The notes: generated by a model not told the origin, from the sequence alone. A DNA stretch of 32,000 bases from Puniceicoccales bacterium (GCA_031288595.1 JAITRB010000003.1:1-32000); one strand, 5' to 3'; numbered from the stretch's first letter, positions 5,595 through 29,951 are shown. Made by a program: numbers and translations.

Positions 5595-6707
5595 ATGGCC
5601 ATGAAGTCGCATCGCATCCTCATCGCCTGTGGAGGTTCTGGTGGACATTTGGCTCCGGGCATCGCTCTGGCCGAGGAGCTGTCGGGGCGCGGCTACCAGC
5701 CGGTGCTTTTCGTGAGCTCGAAGGCAGTGGATCGCCAGATTTTGGCCAAATATCCCCCATGGCCGGTCTTTTTTTTACCGGCGATACCCTTTTCGAAAAA
5801 ACTGTGGACCTTCCCCCGTTTCAGCTATCTGCAATTTATCTCCTTCATCCAAACGTTTCATTTTCTGAGCAGGAGTCCCGCTGCAGCGATCATCGTGACG
5901 GGAGGTTTCACCTCGCCACCGGTGGCGTTGGCTGGGTTTTTAAAAAAAATTCCCATTTTCATCCACGAGTCCAACCGGATTCCCGGGAAAGTGACGCGCC
6001 ATCTGGCGAGGCTTGCCCAGCGCGTCTACATGCCGTCGGAATGGGCCATGGGCAGAACTTCTCCGAGCTGGCAGCGCAGGTTTAAACCCATGGGCTATCC
6101 CCTGCGCTCGGAATTTTTCAGCCCCGAGGCCATTCCCCAGGAGAGTTTCCCGAAGAATGATGAAAAGGGCCTGAGTTTTCTCCTGCTCGGAGGAAGTCAG
6201 GGCGCATGGGCGCTCAATCGGTGGTTCGGCGAGCACGTTGAAGAACTGGTCCCTCTAGCGGGCCATTGGGTCTGCGTGACCGGCCAGAGCTATTACGAGG
6301 AATATGGGGAAGATTTAAGAAAAATACGGCAAAAACATCCCTCGGTGGAGTTTCTTCCCTTCTGCGAACATATGCCTCTGCTGTTGGCCGAAGCCGATCT
6401 CGTCATCGCCCGTGCAGGGGCCGGTAGCATCGCGGAATGCCTGCACTGCGAAGCGCCGATGGTGCTCGTTCCCTTGCCGTCGTCGGCCGATGATCACCAG
6501 CAGGCCAATGCGGCATGGGTCCAAGCCCTGGGCTGTGCCTGTGTGGTCAGACAGGAAAATTTAGATCTCCTGCTACCGCTACTCCGGTGGCTCCACGCGG
6601 CGACTGGTATTTTGCAGCACATGCGCCGCAAGATCCGTGATAGGGCCAAAGCGGATGTACGTCGATTAATCGCAGACGATATGGTGGCCTCCATAGATGG
6701 AGCTTAG
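5595..6707 (+). CDS. murG: UDP-N-acetylglucosamine--N-acetylmuramyl-(pentapeptide) pyrophosphoryl-undecaprenol N-acetylglucosamine transferase
   Basis: N-terminal glycine loop ILIACGGSGGHLAPGIALAEEL, mid-protein LLLGGSQGA, and the C-terminal donor-binding region ARAGAGSIAE...PLPSSADDHQQANA. The length (370 aa) is typical of MurG. Confidence 0.85.
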   Translation: MAMKSHRILIACGGSGGHLAPGIALAEELSGRGYQPVLFVSSKAVDRQILAKYPPWPVFFLPAIPFSKKLWTFPRFSYLQFISFIQTFHFLSRSPAAAIIVTGGFTSPPVALAGFLKKIPIFIHESNRIPGKVTRHLARLAQRVYMPSEWAMGRTSPSWQRRFKPMGYPLRSEFFSPEAIPQESFPKNDEKGLSFLLLGGSQGAWALNRWFGEHVEELVPLAGHWVCVTGQSYYEEYGEDLRKIRQKHPSVEFLPFCEHMPLLLAEADLVIARAGAGSIAECLHCEAPMVLVPLPSSADDHQQANAAWVQALGCACVVRQENLDLLLPLLRWLHAATGILQHMRRKIRDRAKADVRRLIADDMVASIDGA

Positions 6708-6808
6708 GGAGGATTGGAATTTTAAAAGAGGAGCCGTGCACAGGCGAGTTTCAAAAAAGACCCTCCTCATCCCGGCCGATCAGCATTCAGAGGCACGGCG
6801 GGCAGCTA

Positions 6809-6901
6809 TGGCGGAGAGAGAGGGATTCGAACCCTCGGATCCCCTTTTGGAGGATCACCTTCTTAGCAGGAAGGCGCTTTCGACCACTCAGCCATCTCTC
6901 C
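6809..6901 (-). tRNA. tRNA-Ser(GCT), class II with long variable arm, CCA encoded
   Basis: The reverse complement reads GGAGAGATGGCTGAGTGGTCGAAAGCGCCTTCCTGCTAAGAAGGTGATCCTCCAAAAGGGGATCCGAGGGTTCGAATCCCTCTCTCTCCGCCA. It has a 7-bp acceptor stem GGAGAGA/TCTCTCC, an anticodon loop CTGCTAA and a T-arm GAGGG-TTCGAAT-CCCTC. Confidence 0.93.
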
Positions 6902-6981
6902 CGGATCTTCCTCGTTGGCAACTAAAAGGACATCCTCCGAAGGTCAAGGTCGCTCTCAGGGTGAATGGCCTGTCCTTGGGT

Positions 6982-7079
6982 TTGCCGCCTTTGGAGCCCT
7001 TCGGGCTCCGGCCCGCGCAGCGGGCCGTGCCGAGAGAAAATGAACTTGTCTTTCATTTTCTCTCGGCCAAAGGCGGCAA
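6982..7079. repeat. structured intergenic palindromic element, copy 1 (four-way junction)
   Basis: 13-bp closing stem TTGCCGCCTTTGG (6982-6994) / CCAAAGGCGGCAA (7067-7079). It encloses hairpins AGCCC-TTC-GGGCT (6995-7007), GGCCCGC-GCA-GCGGGCC (7010-7026) and CCGAGAGAAAATGAA-CTTGTCT-TTCATTTTCTCTCGG (7030-7066). Confidence 0.8.
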
Positions 7080-7151
7080 CAAACAAGCCATAAATTCTAG
7101 CCGATCGAGCTGGATTAGCTCCGATTGAGCCAGATCACCTGGATTTTCGAC

Positions 7152-9143
7152 TCAAGCGGAAGGCCCACTGCGCCGCAGCGCATCCGACTGCAGCTCGGAT
7201 TTCAGGAGAGCCAGATGCTCCTCCAGCTCTGCTTTGGCCCCGTCCAAGGTCTCTTCTTCAGCCGGCTTCTTTTGCCCAAAGAGGTAGAATTTGATCTTGG
7301 GCTCCGTTCCACTGCTTCGTACAGCGAAGCGATAGCCATGGGCCAAGGTGAAGAAGAGGAAATTTTCAGAGGGAATGGGTTCTCCTTCCTCATCGTAAAG
7401 GGCGCCGGTGATGAAATCCTGCAGCCGGATGATGGGAATGCCCAAAAATTCCTTCGGGGAGCATTCGCGGTACGAGCGGAGGATTTTCTGAATTTTCCGT
7501 GCCCCTGTCTCGCCTTCGAAACTGATGTTGAGAATGGATTCGCCGAAATAGCCATATTGTCGGTAGATTTCTTCCCGAAAATCGGCGATGGACTTCCCCT
7601 CTCTGCCTAGGTCAGCGACCATTTCGCAGGCCATGAGGAGGGCCGCATGGGCATCTTTGTCACGGACGCGATCGCTGGCGAGATAGCCACAGCTCTCCTC
7701 TCCACCGAAGACGAAGAAATGTCCTCCCCGCAGCATCGCCTGCCGACGGGCCTCCCTCTTCTCCCAAACATTTTCTGCGGATTTTCCGCTTTGCCGGCAA
7801 TATTCCTCGAGTTCCTTCTCATAACGGAGGAGTTTGGCTCCGATCCACTTGAAACCCGTGAGGGTATTGATGCAAAGAACCCCATGCCGGGTGGCTATGG
7901 CTTCCAGAAGTGGCGTCGTGACGAAGCTCTTGATCAGAACTGCGCGGGTCGTCCCTTCCGGTGCTAGCCAACCGAGGCGCTTCATCTTCCGGAGGCGGAA
8001 TTCGGCCAGAAGGGCCGCTGTCGTATTGCCCGAGAGCAGCTCCATCGCCCTTTGATGATTGCGGATTCCTAGAGCCATGCGATCGGCATCGGGATCCGTT
8101 CCGATGGCGAGCTCGCACGATGCCGCCTCGGCCATTTGGAGCGCCCGCTGCATCGTGGCAGCGTACTCGGGATTGGGTGAATCGACTGTCGGGAAGCGCG
8201 GATCCTGTACGAGCTGTTCCTCGACGTAGCGGGCGTCGATGCCGAGTCTGGAGAATAGTTTTTCGGCCATGGAGATACCCGTACCGTGGAGAGGGGTATA
8301 GATCAATTGCGGTGTGCGTTGCTGGAAAATGTCTTTCTCCAGAATGTTTTCCTCCAAAGCTTCCAGATAGCGCTCTTCCGTCCTCGCCGAGAGGGTGTGG
8401 ATTCTGGAAGAAGGCCCGAGCTGCGGCAGGATGGCCAAAACCTCTCCCAGCGAAATGGAGCGGTAGTGCTCGATGACAGCGGACGCATGGGGTTCGGTCA
8501 TCTGGGCACCGTCGCGAAAGTAGGCCTTGTAGCCGTTGTCGTGAGGTGGGTTGTGGCTGGCGGTGATGACGACACCGGCCATCGCTCCGAGCTCCCGAAC
8601 CGTAAAGCTCAGCTGTGGCGTCGAACGCGGGCCGTCGAAGACGTAGCAGATCCCTCCCCGCAAGACCCAGGTCTGGGCAACTAATTGGCAGAAATAGGAT
8701 GAGAAATGGCGCACGTCATGGGCGACCACCAAGACCAGGTCCTCGGACTGATTTTCCTTTTGACTGATCCCAAAGTCGGCACAGTAGCGGTGGAGGGCCA
8801 GCGTTGCGCGGATGAGGTTAAAATCATTGAGACAGGCGCTGCCAACCGCCGGATGTTCGGGGCTTCCCTGTGGAGAAAGGGTAGCCCTTTCGGCCTTGGT
8901 GGAAATGCTCCCGATGGTACGGCCCCGAAGTCCGCCGGTACCGAAGGAGAGCTCCTGGCAGAAGCGACTCTGCAGCTCTTCCCAGGCCTCCTGCCGAATC
9001 AGCTCATCGAGCGATTGTCTGGCCCAGAGTGGCAATTGGCTTTCCTGAAGCCAGGCTTGAAGGCGATGGGCCGCTTCTAGATTTAGGAGGCCCTGCCCAA
9101 GAGCCCTTTGAAGCGCCGCTTCGTAGTGACTTTCCATATCCAA
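7152..9143 (-). CDS. phosphoglucomutase/phosphomannomutase family protein (PgcA/PGM2-like alpha-D-phosphohexomutase)
   Basis: Catalytic serine loop VITASHNPPHDNGYK, metal-binding loop GTDPDADR and sugar-binding loop GGEESCG. The N-terminal FGTGGLRG motif is typical of the PgcA subgroup. Confidence 0.85.
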   Translation of the reverse strand: MDMESHYEAALQRALGQGLLNLEAAHRLQAWLQESQLPLWARQSLDELIRQEAWEELQSRFCQELSFGTGGLRGRTIGSISTKAERATLSPQGSPEHPAVGSACLNDFNLIRATLALHRYCADFGISQKENQSEDLVLVVAHDVRHFSSYFCQLVAQTWVLRGGICYVFDGPRSTPQLSFTVRELGAMAGVVITASHNPPHDNGYKAYFRDGAQMTEPHASAVIEHYRSISLGEVLAILPQLGPSSRIHTLSARTEERYLEALEENILEKDIFQQRTPQLIYTPLHGTGISMAEKLFSRLGIDARYVEEQLVQDPRFPTVDSPNPEYAATMQRALQMAEAASCELAIGTDPDADRMALGIRNHQRAMELLSGNTTAALLAEFRLRKMKRLGWLAPEGTTRAVLIKSFVTTPLLEAIATRHGVLCINTLTGFKWIGAKLLRYEKELEEYCRQSGKSAENVWEKREARRQAMLRGGHFFVFGGEESCGYLASDRVRDKDAHAALLMACEMVADLGREGKSIADFREEIYRQYGYFGESILNISFEGETGARKIQKILRSYRECSPKEFLGIPIIRLQDFITGALYDEEGEPIPSENFLFFTLAHGYRFAVRSSGTEPKIKFYLFGQKKPAEEETLDGAKAELEEHLALLKSELQSDALRRSGPSA

Positions 9144-14299: not shown

Positions 14300-14316
14300 G
14301 AAGCTTGGGGAAATTT

Positions 14317-15120
14317 ATGGACTTTTTTGGCTTGAAGGACAAGAACTTCCTCGTCGCTGGCTTGGCCAACCGCAAGAGCGTCGCATGGCATGTGGGACAG
14401 GGTCTGGAGGCCTGTGGCGCCAGGGTTTTCTACAGCGTCCGCTCCGAAGCCCGTAAACTTTCGCTCAAGACACTCCTCGGGGAACGGGAGGTCTTTGTCT
14501 GCGACGTCGAGGAGGAAGGCCAGATCCGGTTGCTAGCCCAGGGTCTTACCAATAGGGGAATGGGACTGGATGGCTTCTTTCATTCCCTGGCATTTGCCAA
14601 TTACAGCCGAGGGATTCGACCTTTTCACGAGACGCTGCGCGAGGACTTTCGGCAGGCGATGGAGATCTCTTGCTTTTCGCTAGTGGAGTTTGCGAGGGCC
14701 CTGAAGCCACTTTTAAAGAGAGATGCATCGATGGTGGCGATGGGAATTTCCTCGCAGGTGGTGGCGGAGAATTATGGCTATATGTCCCCGGTCAAGGCGG
14801 CGCTAGAGAGCACGGTGCGATTTTTGGCCAAGTCCTTCAGCCATGACACTGAGGTGCGCTTCAACTGCGTGAAGGCGAGCCCGCTGAAGACGAGTGCCTC
14901 GGCCGGGATTCCGGGCTATCTGGAGCACTATCTCTATGCCGAGAAGATGACCCTGCGGAAACGGGCACTCACGACACAGGAAGTGGCGAATGTGGTCATT
15001 TTTCTGCTCAGCCCGATGTCCAGTGGCATCAATGGCCAGGGTATTGTGGTCAACGCCGGCATGGATATGAACTACTTCGACCACAAACTGGTATTTCGAG
15101 ATGGGGATGGGGCGGAATAG
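14317..15120 (+). CDS. fabI: enoyl-[acyl-carrier-protein] reductase (NADH), FabI
   Basis: N-terminal Rossmann segment FLVAGLANRKSVAW, HSLAFAN, and the catalytic Y-x6-K (YGYMSPVKAALE). Colinear similarity to E. coli FabI runs throughout. The ORF opens with a TTG at 14305; the first ATG is at 14317. Confidence 0.85.
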   Translation: MDFFGLKDKNFLVAGLANRKSVAWHVGQGLEACGARVFYSVRSEARKLSLKTLLGEREVFVCDVEEEGQIRLLAQGLTNRGMGLDGFFHSLAFANYSRGIRPFHETLREDFRQAMEISCFSLVEFARALKPLLKRDASMVAMGISSQVVAENYGYMSPVKAALESTVRFLAKSFSHDTEVRFNCVKASPLKTSASAGIPGYLEHYLYAEKMTLRKRALTTQEVANVVIFLLSPMSSGINGQGIVVNAGMDMNYFDHKLVFRDGDGAE

Positions 15121-15147: not shown

Positions 15148-15254
15148 GGCGCGATGGCCCGTGAAGGGGAGCCGCCGGAGTCGGCTCCCCTTCACGGCGG
15201 CGCTCCCGCGGAGCGGGAGCGCCGGACTTGGCTTGGCCAAGTGGCCATCGCGCC
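15148..15254. repeat. structured intergenic palindromic element, copy 2 (divergent or permuted member)
   Basis: 12-bp closing stem GGCGCGATGGCC (15148-15159) / GGCCATCGCGCC (15243-15254). It encloses a 15-bp hairpin (15160-15196), a 12-bp hairpin CGGCGCTCCCGC-GGA-GCGGGAGCGCCG (15198-15224) and the short hairpin CTTGGC-TTG-GCCAAG (15227-15241). Confidence 0.65.
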
Positions 15255-15343: not shown

Positions 15344-16375
15344 CTAGCCTCTCGGATGGGCCTTCCGGTGGATTTTTTTCATGTGAGCCACGTCCACGTG
15401 GGTGTAGATCTGCGTCGTGGAGAGATTTTCGTGCCCGAGGAGCTCCTGAACGCTGCGGAGGTCGGCCCCACGGTTGAGCAGGTGGGTCGCGTAGGAGTGG
15501 CGGAGCTTGTGCGGCGACAGGTCGAGTGGCAGGCCGGCCCGGGCCAGATAGTCCTTCAGCCGCTGCTGGATGCAGCGGGCGGAGAGGGCCCTCTGCGGCG
15601 TGCGCTGAGCGAAGAGAACAGGGCCATCAGGGGGAGCGAGGCAGGAATCTCGTGATTGCAGAAAGCTTTGCCACCGAAGCAAGGCGTCGACGGCCTGCTG
15701 ACCAATGGGGCAGAGGCGTTCCTTGGCGCCCTTGCCGTGGACTTTGATCCAACGTTGGGAGAGCTGAACCTGAGACCAGCGCAGGGAGACCAGTTCACCG
15801 ATGCGGCAGCCCGTGCTGTAAAAAAGTTCCAGAATTAATGTGTCGCGATGGGCGACGAAGGGCTCCAGTCGGGAGAGGGAAAGGAGCCGCATCGGCTCTT
15901 GAATCAAGGCGTCGACCTGCGCCTCGGAGAGAAACTTCGGCAAAGTTTTTTCCTTCCGCGGAAGGGTCAATCCGCGGCAGGGATTGTTTTCCAAATTCTT
16001 TCGCGACTGCCGATAGCGAAAAAACGAGCGGATGGCCGCGACGCGCGCATGCAGGGTTGATTTTTTATGGTCGTGCTGGACTTCGATCATCCACTGCCGG
16101 ATGTGCTCCGTTACAACTCCTCTCCAGGAGGGGCTGAGCTGGTATTTGCGGAGATAGGCCCGAAACTGGGAGAGCGATTCCCGATAGGCGCTCAGCGTAT
16201 GTGGGGAGAAGTTGCGCTCACAGCTGAGAAAACTGAGGAAATCATCGAACTCCAGTTCGTCCTGAACCGAAACTTTTAGTGCTGAAGGAGTTTCCTCTGG
16301 AATCTTGGGCGGAGTCTTGGCCTTTGGCCTCTTCTGGGCATTGACTTGCGGGGGAAGGTGGGCTTGCCTCTTCAT
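15344..16375 (-). CDS. site-specific tyrosine recombinase, XerC/XerD family
   Basis: N-terminal SAM-like core-binding domain (FLSFLSCERNFSPHTLSAYRESL). Catalytic residues appear in TGCRIGELVSLRW, HKLRHSYATHLL and LLGHENLSTTQIYTHV. I place the start at the ATG at 16375, because the longer tracked ORF (to 16834) runs antisense through the ferredoxin gene. Confidence 0.85.
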   Translation of the reverse strand: MKRQAHLPPQVNAQKRPKAKTPPKIPEETPSALKVSVQDELEFDDFLSFLSCERNFSPHTLSAYRESLSQFRAYLRKYQLSPSWRGVVTEHIRQWMIEVQHDHKKSTLHARVAAIRSFFRYRQSRKNLENNPCRGLTLPRKEKTLPKFLSEAQVDALIQEPMRLLSLSRLEPFVAHRDTLILELFYSTGCRIGELVSLRWSQVQLSQRWIKVHGKGAKERLCPIGQQAVDALLRWQSFLQSRDSCLAPPDGPVLFAQRTPQRALSARCIQQRLKDYLARAGLPLDLSPHKLRHSYATHLLNRGADLRSVQELLGHENLSTTQIYTHVDVAHMKKIHRKAHPRG

Positions 16376-16426
16376 GAAAAGACTTGACGCTTGGATGGGC
16401 TTGTGGAACTTGCTCAGAGAGAGAGT

Positions 16427-16660
16427 ATGGCCAACAGCGCGAACAAGTCGCCCAAAAATGTTTCGGGACGTTTTTACGTGGATGACCAGTGCATCGACTG
16501 CGACCTCTGCCGTGAACTGGCCCCCGACTGTTTCACCCGTGACCACGATGCGGGCAGTTCTTTCGTGGGCCGCCAGCCCTCCACCGCCGAAGAGGAAGAG
16601 ATGTGCCGAGAGGCTCTGGAGAGCTGTCCCGTGAGCGCCATAGGGGACGACGGCGAGTGA
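16427..16660 (+). CDS. ferredoxin (single Fe-S cluster domain)
   Basis: YVDDQCIDCDLCRELAPDCF ... EALESCPVSAI gives a CxxCxxC...CP cluster-ligand pattern in a 77-aa protein. The ATG at 16427 lies inside the tracked ORF 16391-16660. Confidence 0.75.
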   Translation: MANSANKSPKNVSGRFYVDDQCIDCDLCRELAPDCFTRDHDAGSSFVGRQPSTAEEEEMCREALESCPVSAIGDDGE

Positions 16661-16724
16661 CGGAGCCGGCAAGTCTTTTTTTTTGACGAGGAGGGCAGGG
16701 CCGCGATAATCCCCCCTCAGGGGT

Positions 16725-17369
16725 ATGGGTTTTTCGAAAAAGGCCTGGAGTTCAAGGTCGGCATTCACGCTGGTGGAGCTTCTGATGACCATCGGGCTGC
16801 TCTTTTGCCTCCTGATGGTGGTGGGGCATGTCATCCGTCAGGATCTCTCCCATCGACGCTTATCCCTGGCACTCGAGGTGGTGGAAGATTTTCTCTCCCT
16901 GGCCACGACGACGGCCCGTCTGGACCACGTTTACGTGCGCATTTTATGGAATGTGGGCGATTCTTCATCAGGACATGAGTCCAGGATTTTTCTCCTCACC
17001 TCTCCTGCTATTAGCCCATCGGCCGAATGGACCCTGTCGCGCTCCGAGCCTCTGCCCGAGCATTGTCGGCTGCTGACCCAGATCGAGAATCATAATTTCC
17101 CAGCAGGTGCTAGCGTCAATGTTTCAGAGGCCTGGCTTAACGGCACTTCTACCCTTCTCTGCGAGGGCAGTGTTTCCGTTCGGGAATGCTTCTTCAATCC
17201 CGACGGAGAGCTGAGAGAGGCGGATGGGAGCAGCCCTCTTTGTCGGGCGATAGGGTTGGGTTACGGGCCCAAAGCATCCCCTCTGGGCTCTGTTTCCATC
17301 AACGCCAATGGCCATGTGCAAATCCATGAAGGAATCGAAAATGTGCAGAATTTCCTCGCGACTCTTTAG
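16725..17369 (+). CDS. prepilin-type N-terminal cleavage/methylation domain protein (pseudopilin)
   Basis: N-terminus MGFSKKAWSSRSA|FTLVELLMTIGLLFCLLMVV has a short basic leader, F at +1, E at +5 and a hydrophobic helix. I recognise no other domain. Confidence 0.65.
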   Translation: MGFSKKAWSSRSAFTLVELLMTIGLLFCLLMVVGHVIRQDLSHRRLSLALEVVEDFLSLATTTARLDHVYVRILWNVGDSSSGHESRIFLLTSPAISPSAEWTLSRSEPLPEHCRLLTQIENHNFPAGASVNVSEAWLNGTSTLLCEGSVSVRECFFNPDGELREADGSSPLCRAIGLGYGPKASPLGSVSINANGHVQIHEGIENVQNFLATL

Positions 17370-20659: not shown

Positions 20660-21787
<1,128 letters not shown>

Positions 21788-21886: not shown

Positions 21887-21973
21887 CCCGCTGCCTTTGA
21901 ATCCCGAAGGGATTGGCCCGCGGAGCGGGCCTCAAGAGCCCCTCTGCAGGGGGGCTCTTGCAAAGGCAGCGGG
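21887..21973. repeat. structured intergenic palindromic element, copy 3 (four-way junction)
   Basis: 13-bp closing stem CCCGCTGCCTTTG (21887-21899) / CAAAGGCAGCGGG (21961-21973). It encloses ATCCC-GAA-GGGAT (21901-21913), GGCCCGC-GGA-GCGGGCC (21915-21931) and CAAGAGCCCC-loop-GGGGCTCTTG (21933-21960). Confidence 0.8.
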
Positions 21974-22016: not shown

Positions 22017-23426
22017 CTAGCCCACCGCACCCTCCACCTCGAGCTCGATGAGGCGCTTGAGTTCCACACCGTACTCCATCGGGAATTCGCGCAGGAGCTC
22101 ATTGACGAAGCCATTGACGCTGAGGCTCAAGGCCTGGGCATGCGGAATGCCTCGCTGCTGGAGATAGAAGAGCTGCTCCTCACTGATTTTCGAAACACTC
22201 GCCTCGTGCTGGACACAGTTTCGATGACCATGAATGCGCAGGGTGGGGAAAGTGGCGCTGCAGCTACGGGCATTCAGGAGCAGAGCATCGCACTGGGTAT
22301 GGTTTTGGCATTGTCCATCGGCGGGCCGGATGTCGACGAAATTGCGAGCGGAGGCAATACCGCTGCCGAGGGATATAGATTTGGAAATAATTTGGGAACT
22401 CGTATGCCGGCCGAGGTGGATCATCTTGGCTCCGGTGTCCTGCCACTGGCCCTCGCGGGCGACGGCGATGGAGAGCACCTCGCCCCTGGCCCGTTCGCCC
22501 TGAAGCAGGATGCAGGGATACTTCATGGTCAACTTCGAGCCGATATTGCAGTCAATCCAGCGGATCTCGGCCCCCTCATGGGCAACGCCGCGCTTGGTGA
22601 CGAGGTTGAAAACATTGCGCGACCAGTTCTGGACGGAGATATACTGCAGCTTGGCGTGGGGCAAAACCACCAGCTCGACGACCGCCGAATGCAGCATGGC
22701 CTTGGAGGAAGAAGGAGCCGTACAGCCCTCCATATAGCTCACTTCAGCCCCTTCGCCGACGACGATGAGGGTGCGCTCGAATTGTCCGAAATTCTCGGCA
22801 TTGATGCGGAAATAGGCCTGCAGAGGCTGGGAGACTTTGAGTCCAGGCGGAACGTAGATGAAACTCCCACCGCTGAAAACGGCGCTGTTCAGCGCGCTGA
22901 ATTTGTTGTCCCCCACGGGGACGATTTGGCCGAAATGGGGGCGAAAGATTTCCGGATAACGGGCAAGGCCCTCGGAGGAGCTGACGAAGATGACCCCTTG
23001 GGCCTGCAGGCGTTCCTGGATACGTGCATAGGCCGCTTCGCTGTCGAACTGGGCCTCGACGCCGGCCAGGAATTTCTGCTCCTGTTCCGGAATGCCCAGG
23101 CGTTCGAAGGTTCGTTTGACCTCCGGCGACACCTCTTCCCAGGACTGCCGGCTCTCTGTTCCCTGGGCGAGGTAGTAGTGGAAGTCCTCGAATCGCAAGT
23201 CCCGCAGAACGGCCGGTGCCCATTCCCAGGGCATGGTTTTTTGGAGAAAAATATCCAGGGCCTCATGCCGCCATCGGCGAATCCATGGTTCTTCTCCCTT
23301 CGCGTCGGAGATGTAGTCGAGCGTCGCGTGCGACAATCCCTGACCCGCATCTAGGGAGTAATTTAGGGCATACCTGAAATCCCCTTTCGTCTCCTGGGCA
23401 TCTGCGATGATTTCGGGAGATTTCAT
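22017..23426 (-). CDS. sufB: Fe-S cluster assembly protein SufB
   Basis: A full-length 469-aa SufB-type sequence, including [82 protein letters not shown] and a C-terminal [19 protein letters not shown]. Its start overlaps the sufC stop codon (ATGA). Confidence 0.9.
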
Positions 23427-28920: not shown

Positions 28921-28972
28921 CAATATCGGGAGCAGGCCGAGCCTTGGTCCCTCATGAGAGGAGGTGAGCGAA

Positions 28973-29173
28973 ATGTCCGTTGAAGTGAAGCTGCGCAAGG
29001 GTGAGAGCATCGACAAGGCCCTGCGGCGTCTGAAAAAAAAGCTGGACCGCGAGAACATTATCAAGGACGTGCGGGCGAAGCGCTTTTTCGAAAAGCCATG
29101 CGAGCGCCGCCGCCGCAAGGAGAAGGTCGCTAAGTTCAACAACATGTTGCGCCTGCGCTACGAAAACGCCTGA
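28973..29173 (+). CDS. rpsU: 30S ribosomal protein S21
   Basis: MSVEVKLRKGESIDKALRRLKKKLDRENIIKDVRAKRFFEKPCERRRRKEK matches the S21 pattern. A strong Shine-Dalgarno GAGAGGAGG ends 8 nt before the ATG at 28973. The tracked ORF starts at a GTG at 28964. Confidence 0.9.
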   Translation: MSVEVKLRKGESIDKALRRLKKKLDRENIIKDVRAKRFFEKPCERRRRKEKVAKFNNMLRLRYENA

Positions 29174-29224: not shown

Positions 29225-29267
29225 TCGGGTAGGATCTCTTTGGGTATCCTAAGAGTGGGGAGGTGGT

Positions 29268-29362
29268 GCCGCCTTAAAGCCCTTTGGGCTTGCCCGCGAA
29301 GCGGGCATGCGACTAGGTAAACGAAGGCCTTAGGCCTTTGTTTGCCTAGTCGCTAAGGCGGC
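29268..29362. repeat. structured intergenic palindromic element, copy 4 (four-way junction)
   Basis: 9-bp closing stem GCCGCCTTA (29268-29276) / TAAGGCGGC (29354-29362). It encloses AAGCCC-TTT-GGGCTT (29277-29291), GCCCGC-GAA-GCGGGC (29292-29306) and a 21-bp hairpin (29309-29353, loop TTA, two G-T wobbles). Confidence 0.8.
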
Positions 29363-29467
29363 GGAGCCTCTGAGCCTGCTTCCACTCCGGTGCTGAAAAA
29401 AGTGCCTTTTGAGTTTGAGATTGACCGTAATGGGGCAAAACCTAGTGCTGGTCCTTGTTTTTTCAGA

Positions 29468-29558
29468 GGAGAGATGGCAGAGCGGTCGATTGTGCAGCAC
29501 TGGAAATGCTGTGTACCTCTTAAGGGTACCGAGGGTTCGAATCCCTCTCTCTCCGCCA
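29468..29558 (+). tRNA. tRNA-Ser(GGA), class II with long variable arm, CCA encoded
   Basis: GGAGAGATGGCAGAGCGGTCGATTGTGCAGCACTGGAAATGCTGTGTACCTCTTAAGGGTACCGAGGGTTCGAATCCCTCTCTCTCCGCCA. Acceptor stem GGAGAGA/TCTCTCC, anticodon loop CTGGAAA and T-arm GAGGG-TTCGAAT-CCCTC. Confidence 0.93.
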
Positions 29559-29614
29559 GTATCTACTTTTATGACAAGTGCTTCTTTTGCGACGTTCACT
29601 TGCTTGGTATGACG

Positions 29615-29630
29615 GGAGTTTTAGAAGATG
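29615..29630 (+). repeat. 16-bp direct repeat, right copy (GGAGTTTTAGAAGATG)
   Basis: Perfect match to 29209-29224. It lies 57 nt downstream of the 3' end of tRNA-Ser(GGA). Confidence 0.8.
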
Positions 29631-29951
29631 CCAAGATGCAAGAAGGGATAGGGCGAGACGGGGGTGCGACGTGCTACGCTAGTGCTGTGGCCGATCCTGA
29701 CGACTGCTTCGCCCAAGGAATACAAGGGGATAAATGCACCCCGTACTGCTGTCGGCTGACGCTGCATTACGCCGACCCACGACGGGCAGTTGCCGGAGGG
29801 CCAACTATCGACCACCTCCTTCGATTCATGGAGGAGAAACGCCGGCAATCCTTTTCCCCATAATGGAGAAATAATTCCCTAAACCCTTCCACTTCTTCTG
29901 CCTCCGCGCTCCGTCCATCCCTTTGCTCCCATTTTCGACGAGTATTCGAAA

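Follow-up and report, generated by a model that had tools for sequence, protein, structure and literature searches.

A previously undescribed high-copy repeat with a four-way-junction fold in a small group of termite-gut Verrucomicrobia

Background

What kind of element occupies positions 6,982 to 7,079 of the 32,000-nucleotide (nt) stretch of Puniceicoccales DNA analysed here (GCA_031288595.1 JAITRB010000003.1:1-32000; hereafter the window), an intergenic segment that can be folded into a cloverleaf-like four-way junction? A sequence-only reading of the window had regarded this segment as copy 1 of a family with four members, and had listed among its candidate roles a REP/BIME-like repeat, a stabilizer or terminator at the 3' end of messenger RNA (mRNA), and a hairpin recognized on single-stranded DNA (ssDNA). 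In this work we find that the segment belongs to a previously undescribed, high-copy repeat that is confined to a small clade of Verrucomicrobia living in termite guts. The existence of this new family is well supported, and its mechanism is only partly resolved; among the roles that had been listed, the REP/BIME-like one turned out to be the best fit.

Results

Folding of both strands bears out the proposed architecture: at all four sites, and on either strand, one closing stem surrounds three hairpins joined by linkers of 0-2 nt (ViennaRNA). The minimum free energies range from -70 to -98 kcal/mol, corresponding to z-scores between -7.1 and -10.5 for the + strand and between -6.9 and -10.4 for the - strand, and none of 200 dinucleotide shuffles matched the native fold energy at the four sites. 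The core CCCGCGNAGCGGG occurs four times in the window, always on the + strand, against 0.53 occurrences expected, and none of 100 shuffles reached four. The possibility that the elements are tRNAs or tRNA-like cloverleaves was considered and rejected, as ARAGORN and the Rfam model RF00005 detect only three true tRNAs in the window, and the arms of the elements (10-13, 6, 6-7 and 12-21 bp, with triloops) differ from the 7/4/5/5-bp arms of tRNA.

Copies 1, 3 and 4 display the module order short-middle-long on the + strand and are homologous module by module, as had been claimed, with scores of 72-84 bits against a covariance model of the family. Copy 1 (6982..7079, + strand; 83.8 bits, E 1.5e-18) is composed of the closing stem TTGCCGCCTTTG / CAAAGGCGGCAA (6982-6993 / 7068-7079), the short hairpin GAGCCC-TTC-GGGCTC (6994-7008), the middle hairpin CGGCCCGC-GCA-GCGGGCCG (7009-7027) and a long hairpin of 16 bp (7029-7067). 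The corresponding modules of copy 3 (21887..21973, + strand; 74.7 bits) are CCCGCTGCCTTTG / CAAAGGCAGCGGG (21887-21899 / 21961-21973), AATCCC-GAA-GGGATT (21900-21914), GGCCCGC-GGA-GCGGGCC (21915-21931) and a 12-bp hairpin (21933-21960), and those of copy 4 (29267..29363, + strand; 72.2 bits) are TGCCGCCTTA / TAAGGCGGCG (29267-29276 / 29354-29363), AAGCCC-TTT-GGGCTT (29277-29291), GCCCGC-GAA-GCGGGC (29292-29306) and a 21-bp hairpin that includes two G.T pairs (29309-29353). The lengths previously given for these three long stems were 15, 10 and 21 bp, of which only the last is right. Copy 2 (15148..15254, - strand) has the reversed order long-middle-short on the + strand and other stem sequences: the closing stem GGCGCGATGGCC / GGCCATCGCGCC (15148-15159 / 15243-15254) encloses a long hairpin (15160-15196), the middle hairpin CGGCGCTCCCGC-GGA-GCGGGAGCGCCG (15198-15224) and the short hairpin ACTTGGC-TTG-GCCAAGT (15226-15242). 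It scores only 15.9 bits. Copy 2 should therefore be seen not as an ordinary family member like copies 1, 3 and 4 but as a divergent one that is limited to a single conserved border between genes.

The search for further copies in related genomes was productive, with about 60 copies counted over roughly 230 kb of DNA of a single clade of Puniceicoccales from the lower-termite gut. The covariance model R1, built from 20 copies, gives 46 matches with E < 1e-7 in the 159 kb that comprise the window and loci from metagenome-assembled genomes (MAGs), with full copies scoring 57-99 bits. More R1 copies are present in every relative fetched through homologues of SufB, phosphoglucomutase (PGM) or PGI, namely in L115-L118 (eight strong matches), L120, L121, L123 and L125, where L-numbers denote fetched loci. 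The density in loci chosen by protein rather than by motif is one copy per 2-8 kb, which extrapolates to several hundred per genome. When 185,579 species genomes were scanned with a pattern, matches fell on many contigs of two Puniceicoccales MAGs, Pcl387_bin38 and Pcl387_bin136, and 'Pcl387' MAGs are described as derived from lower termites. The family is found in genomes of both about 60% G+C (bin38) and about 47% G+C (bin136). The host of the window is itself a member of Puniceicoccales of the lower-termite gut, and the source records of the proteins encoded in the window name them as belonging to Puniceicoccales MAGs. The window, part of a JGI contig of 119 kb, matches a Logan contig at 99.9% identity. 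Its proteins have only a few close relatives, beyond which identity drops steeply, from 94, 79 and 78% to 66% for SufB, and from 84, 84 and about 67% (five proteins) to 51% for PGM.

Outside this clade, 93 loci from other phyla matched the seed pattern, with at best 32.5 bits compared to 57-99 bits inside the clade; we therefore rejected them as family members and treat them as chance two-hairpin matches. No Rfam family corresponds to the element, in line with the sequence-only reading: in the window and in eight loci holding about 25 copies only tRNAs exceed the gathering thresholds of Rfam 15, no family was matched in the E-value mode, and the best sub-threshold match at copy 1 is to a CRISPR repeat model, with 20.9 bits against a cut-off of 35. 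A strict type-A pattern gave no matches among JGI metagenome contigs, a collection from which samples of the clade are apparently absent, so this result has little bearing on the distribution. No matches were found in a scan of viral contigs, and our literature search returned no relevant description of a repeat from Puniceicoccales or of a four-way-junction repeat.

The unit of the family measures about 80-115 nt and consists of a closing inverted repeat and three internal palindromes. Its conserved parts are the junction-proximal closing stem, GCTG(T/C/G)CTTTG / CAAAG(A/G/C)CAGC, the CCC/GGG end of the short hairpin, and almost the entire middle hairpin, GCCCGC-NNN-GCGGGC. The long hairpin is mostly variable, different in nearly every copy but still paired, and the outer extension of the closing stem usually adds a few copy-specific pairs, often T-runs opposite A-runs. 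Both small hairpins have loops of three nucleotides, mostly G-N-A on either strand. When the modules are read as short-middle-long, approximately half of the copies have GNA as their middle loop, approximately a quarter have TNC and the rest have other sequences, and the short loop is mostly TTC, GAA, GGA or TCC, so that the two GNA loops often lie on opposite strands. The subfamily with the short hairpin CGATTCC/GGAATCG mostly has TNC, but one of its copies (L054:3828) has GAA, which indicates that the orientation of the loop is uncoupled from that of the element. The GNA triloop closed by a C-G pair corresponds to the d(GCGNAGC) mini-hairpin, whose stability is much greater in DNA than in RNA (PMC13037366). 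Since the DNA and RNA parameter sets of ViennaRNA assign the same energies to GCA, TGC, ACG and TTT loops, we judged the preference for GNA from the literature instead.

Covariation was measured on an alignment of 46 copies, with 1597 stem cells and 36 pairs, and 500 column shuffles served as the null. Standard pairs occupy 97.4% of the stem cells, compared to 70.8% after the columns are shuffled and 43-52% when partners are displaced by one to three columns. Every helix of the element covaries. Double-sided changes occur in 32 of the 36 pairs (446 doubly changed cells), and none of the 500 shuffles reaches any of five covariation measures; a separate analysis gave 23 of 36 pairs, likewise reached by none of 500 shuffles; the suggestion that the stem differences are compensatory was thus correct. 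The same is seen among close paralogues and orthologues, which differ by fully compensated pairs, transversion pairs included (e.g. L037:5307 vs L037:6680). For instance, copy 3 and its orthologue L115:2449-2529 differ by one linker base, two compensated pairs of the long hairpin (one of them a change from C-G to A-T) and the loop of the long hairpin.

G.U pairs are nearly absent, being found in only 28 of the 1597 cells (1.8%). The evolution of RNA that folds as one strand usually proceeds via G.U intermediates. Covariation that is nearly exclusively of the Watson-Crick type would be expected if both strands must pair, or if one arm copies the other, and would be atypical of one-strand RNA; with G.U at only about 2%, the pattern points to a state in which both strands pair. 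A signature of one-strand RNA was sought in the asymmetry of the strands as well, and rejected: the GNA strand and its complement have 18 G.U pairs each, and the two do not differ significantly in energy (Wilcoxon p 0.46).

Comparison of orthologous sites reveals that the element may be retained, replaced, gained or lost. The copy 1 element is found upstream of tRNA-Ser(gct) in the window, L116, L120 and L121, and the closing stem TTGCCGCCTTTG and a recognizable long hairpin (GAAAAATGAAAGC...) are retained in all four, even though L121 shares only 67% PGM identity with the window and L116 has another upstream gene; the link between the element and this tRNA gene outlasts the change of the other neighbour. 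The fold of copy 2 is retained at the 3' end of fabI in L119 and L121. In the latter all three hairpins differ from those of the window (CATCGGAGGAGCGGC-TTT, GGCATTTC-GTT-GAAATGCC and CTTTGC-TTT-GCAAAG) and only the inner closing stem GCGATGGCC is unchanged. The closing-stem type of copy 2 is complete only at the fabI border, with a partial copy at the end of L025 (3617-3643), where GGCGCGATGGCC is followed by CTCTTTGC-AGA-GCAAAGG. This partial copy lies at the very end of a bin38 contig and on the other side of the xer gene than in the window, which suggests an IS-associated rearrangement (IS, insertion sequence), and that the repeats break MAG assemblies.

Other sites show turnover. A bin38 copy (L025:3388-3487) follows an open reading frame (ORF) of 163 aa at a place that is empty in the window, and a copy separates the Rce1-like and tsaE genes in L123 and L125, the same genes being adjacent in L126 and the window. 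In L123 the spacer between rpsU and tRNA-Ser(gga) lacks copy 4 and has a plain hairpin of 11 bp instead. The rpsU 3' spacers of relatives without copy 4 contain an unrelated simple stable hairpin, of 11 bp in L123 (11903-11932) and of about 13 bp, G+C-rich, in L126 (2990-3040).

Copies may also sit one inside another. At the copy 1 site of L120 (7890-8200) the outer closing stem, the middle hairpin and the stems of the short hairpin are kept, the long arm has become a composite of about 150 nt with a full inner copy (7947-8035), and a second full copy (8094-8178) lies inside the loop of the short hairpin. The same nested composite is found at L047:2090-2400, L054:1-260 and L112:2500-2730. This composite subfamily contains a G-quadruplex-like run (GGGTGGGTGGGGTGGG) on one strand only, which is the sole large asymmetric bulge in an otherwise palindromic composite (L047:2150-2172; L054, about 180-200, on the opposite strand; L112, about 2595-2612; L120, about 7920-7940).

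The loops, finally, invert. The middle loop at the tRNA-Ser(gct) site is TGC in the window and L121 and GCA in L116 and L120, and at the Rce1/tsaE site GTA and TGC alternate between L123 and L125. The GNA hairpin had been described as nearly invariant, which does not hold in the larger sample: at orthologous sites the loop may read either GNA or TNC, some copies have another sequence in its place, and hence it cannot serve as the mark of a functional strand.

All copies examined are intergenic and lie mostly at the 3' ends of genes, with 11 in a convergent, 18 in a tandem and 5 in a divergent context according to crude, ORF-based gene calls. At the four window sites the distance from the stop codon to the element is 28-103 nt, and no T-tract follows, as the sequence-only reading had it. 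An intrinsic (Rho-independent) terminator was rejected, because a terminator scan calls no copy and there is no 3' T-run; several copies have an A-run on the 3' side and a T-run on the 5' side, the reverse of a terminator. Between positions 6000 and 24000 of the window we counted 22 canonical hairpin-plus-T-run sites, against 19.8 expected from shuffled sequences, and 3 sigma-70-like promoter matches, against 6.1 expected.

Polarity with respect to replication was likewise rejected, as the GNA strand is split 17:15 relative to the local GC skew among 32 copies, though all four window loops lie on the G-rich + strand. The orientation relative to tandem genes shows a trend, 13:5 by the GNA strand or 12:6 by module order, neither of which is significant. 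Given these splits, the common strand of the four window loops is most likely due to chance. GC skew is positive in almost all 2-kb bins of the window (1-32000; cumulative +0.94), indicating that the whole window probably belongs to one replichore.

In the window, copy 1 lies 73 nt downstream of the stop codon (7152) of the gene for PGM and 80 nt upstream of tRNA-Ser(gct) (6809..6901, - strand). Copy 2 starts 28 nt past the stop codon of a gene for a fabI-like enoyl-ACP reductase (14305..15120, + strand), and a distance of 90 nt separates it from the end of the convergent gene for an xer-like recombinase (15344-16834, - strand). Copy 3 is placed between the stop codons of gap, coding for GAPDH (20663..21787, + strand), and of sufB, convergent to it (22017-23426, - strand), and copy 4 lies 95 nt downstream of rpsU (28964-29173) and about 105 nt upstream of tRNA-Ser(gga) (29468..29558, + strand). 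In the sampled DNA of the clade 7 of 11 tRNA genes lie no more than about 300 nt from a copy, which is usually on their upstream side (window 6809-6901 and 29468-29558; L015:2558-2634; L018:1-63; L116:3894-3986; L121:12447-12538; L123:13231-13304), an enrichment that is not clearly significant because of the way the loci were selected. ORFs of 54-157 codons cross elements and tRNA genes (window 6697-7128 and 29390-29863 on the + strand, 6922-7086 and 29330-29599 on the - strand; L116:4003-4341), one of them being a called gene in a public assembly. These are almost certainly artefacts of the G+C-rich palindromes.

Insertion sequences of the IS5-like type (DDE_Tnp_1 + DUF4096) and short derivatives resembling miniature inverted-repeat transposable elements (MITEs) are very common in genomes of the clade. 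At their ends ...TTTGACGACRNCCTC precedes TAG or TAA, and they often lie 20-45 nt from a four-way-junction copy (sites at L022:1040-1259, L047:3266-3461, L024:533/3547, L054:3679/4067, L116:119/234/9123 and L025:1-478; transposase genes at L116:8318-9133 and L123:12161-12529). One such copy, in L025, is located in place of the fabI side of the xer gene. We considered and rejected the idea that the element is a MITE mobilized by an autonomous IS of this kind: the abundant IS5-like IS/MITE ends, ...TTTGACGACRNCCTCTAG, are unrelated to the closing stem GCTG(T/C)CTTTG, and we therefore treat their nearness as co-location in intergenic space.

Discussion

We propose, with about even confidence, that the family is a clade-specific, high-copy DNA repeat of nested palindromes that occupies a niche similar to that of REP/BIME and is maintained as hairpin or cruciform DNA, with possible secondary effects at the 3' ends of mRNAs. 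The arguments for this reading are the clade-restricted copy number, the extragenic location, the existence of subfamilies, gain and loss, nesting, loop flips, and covariation restricted to Watson-Crick pairs. In such a scenario the constrained state would be folded DNA, with hairpins or a cruciform formed on transiently single-stranded or supercoiled DNA and both strands pairing. Complementarity of the arms would be preserved chiefly through template switching within a strand or correction of one arm by the other, together with conversion between copies, rather than by slow compensation of the RNA type, and new copies would arise by a structure-dependent copy-in that favours loops of existing hairpins and gene-distal spacers. 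Since either transcribed strand would give the same four-way junction at the mRNA 3' end, a secondary, REP-like effect of the transcribed element on mRNA decay or processing is likely.

Several observations weigh against this proposal. Divergent, promoter-side spacers are under-used (5 of 34 copies), and in relatives a simple hairpin replaces the element after rpsU; both fit a role at RNA 3' ends. Copies 1 and 2 are kept at orthologous borders at 67% PGM identity, and copy 2 keeps its fold after almost complete turnover of its sequence, as expected from selection for a host function; such retention would fit a purely selfish element only if the correction between arms were strong. No direct target-site duplication or clean insertion boundary is seen, and the flanks instead extend the closing stem as inverted complements, e.g. 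TTTTTGGGG...CCCCAAAAA. No enzyme has been linked to the family: a tblastn search for RAYT/IS200 proteins, with IS200 TnpA and E. coli RayT queries and covering 196 kb (a few percent of the genomes), gave no match better than E 0.06. The extrusion of DNA and the template switching at the elements are steps that we infer from the sequences.

The alternative that survives best, which we regard as possible if on balance unlikely, is that a host-functional RNA structure at mRNA 3' ends is primary, blocking 3' exonucleases in both directions, offering a site for RNase III-type processing, or serving in termination or insulation independent of a U-tract, between convergent genes or between protein and tRNA genes. 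It would readily account for the preference for gene 3' ends, for the clade-wide conservation of position and fold of copies 1 and 2, and for the simple stable hairpins in relatives that lack the element after rpsU. The lack of enrichment of canonical terminator-like sites in the window and the trend in orientation relative to upstream genes also speak for it. Even the restriction to Watson-Crick pairs can be accommodated, because at convergent junctions both strands are transcribed and both must fold. However, G.U pairs are scarce and strand-symmetric even between tandem genes, a setting in which pairing on a single strand ought to suffice, U-tracts do not follow any copy and several are flanked by A-runs after and T-runs before, some copies occupy divergent spacers, and the bias in orientation is not significant. 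Moreover, a tuned RNA signal would not be expected to flip its loops or to form nests of 250-300 nt. It should be emphasized that the two views are compatible to some extent, as the elements may well have a function at the RNA level in addition to their nature as a DNA repeat.

A different explanation, rather doubtful in our opinion, places the family among mobile DNA that targets structure, with a junction- or hairpin-specific enzyme copying the four-way junction into the loops of existing hairpins, be they other copies or terminator-like. Folded DNA would then be at once the substrate of transposition and the target that is preferred, in a kind of mobile DNA that would be new. Nested copies, outer stems that vary yet remain complementary, and the bias towards the 3' ends of genes would all follow from it.

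A classical REP/REPIN system, in which non-autonomous copies are moved as ssDNA by RAYT, an IS200-like tyrosine transposase of the HUH type that is encoded by a single-copy gene and recognizes one small hairpin, we consider improbable. In niche and behaviour the family does resemble such a system. Like REP, BIME and REPIN sequences, the members of the family are high-copy extragenic palindromes at gene 3' ends that occur as singles, inverted pairs (L018:3667/3799, L116:1231/1416, L037:5134/5307) and clusters, with conserved pairing of the hairpins, most copies, including the four in the window, being singlets. Their C-GNA-G hairpins would be very stable in ssDNA. REPIN copies insert in or beside one another, as the copies described here do, and a 'clover' fold has been proposed as a RAYT substrate (PMC3116915). 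On the other hand, the unit is a fully paired four-way junction of 80-115 nt with three distinct hairpins rather than a palindrome of about 20-40 nt, no conserved foot of the GTAG type is apparent on inspection of the family alignments, and there is no sequence similarity to the REP, BIME and REPIN elements of Proteobacteria, the host being a member of Verrucomicrobiota. Family copies, unlike those elements, are kept at orthologous borders with almost complete sequence turnover, and they can sit one inside another and keep the fold at the same gene borders across species. The 196 kb searched contain no IS200/RAYT-like ORF, a result of low power. IS200/IS605-like elements are biased to one template strand, and only to the extent that this preference applies does the absence of bias with respect to the replication-strand proxy count against a RAYT.

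Finally, a role as chromosomal ssDNA signals, i.e. clusters of hairpins serving a primase, PriA or a hairpin-promoter RNA polymerase, is very improbable: the complementary-strand origin of phage G4, plasmid ssiA and the early promoters of phage N4 do use d(GCGNAGC)-type mini-hairpins in multi-hairpin ssDNA folds (PMC13037366), the family has the same C-GNA-G triloop in the middle and usually also in the short hairpin, and the four window GNA loops share the G-rich strand, but those signals are single-copy and strand-specific, whereas in the family the loops flip at orthologous sites, those of the short and middle hairpins often face opposite strands, the GNA strand is unrelated to GC skew, and the several hundred copies extrapolated per genome far exceed any need for priming.

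Two further groups of sequences invite comparison. ERIC/IRU, Correia (NEMIS) and the pneumococcal BOX/RUP elements measure about 100-150 nt and have inverted repeats at their termini; they form long folds when co-transcribed and can alter the stability or processing of mRNA; BOX is modular as well. They possess one long imperfect hairpin or MITE-like target duplications, in contrast to the four-helix junction of the family, which has almost no mismatches, no direct-repeat flanks that we could see, and modules that are swapped or nested. Hairpin inversions in chloroplast spacers and quasipalindromes of E. coli represent template-switch mutation at isolated hairpins. The family resembles them in that loops of orthologues invert with the stems intact, and a change in one arm is matched by its complement in the opposite arm, but it is a dispersed and conserved family of multi-hairpin elements. 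The family departs from REP/BIME/REPIN elements in unit size and in the lack of an evident foot, and it does not have the defining features of MITEs, of intrinsic terminators or of any Rfam family; we therefore assign it to no named group.

Conclusions

If the proposed interpretation is correct, it would extend the REP type of 'structured junk' to Verrucomicrobiota, in the form of a perfectly paired four-way junction built of mini-hairpin modules. With about 60 copies, orthologous series over at least three lineages, nested gains and loop flips, the family offers a clean natural data set in which selection on an RNA fold can be set against the self-correction of palindromes at the DNA level. 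There are practical consequences as well, as the elements appear to break MAG assemblies, several lying at contig ends, and create spurious ORF calls. If a dedicated enzyme exists, it would represent a junction- or hairpin-specific DNA tool, and the elements themselves could be used as strain markers for the Puniceicoccales of the termite gut.

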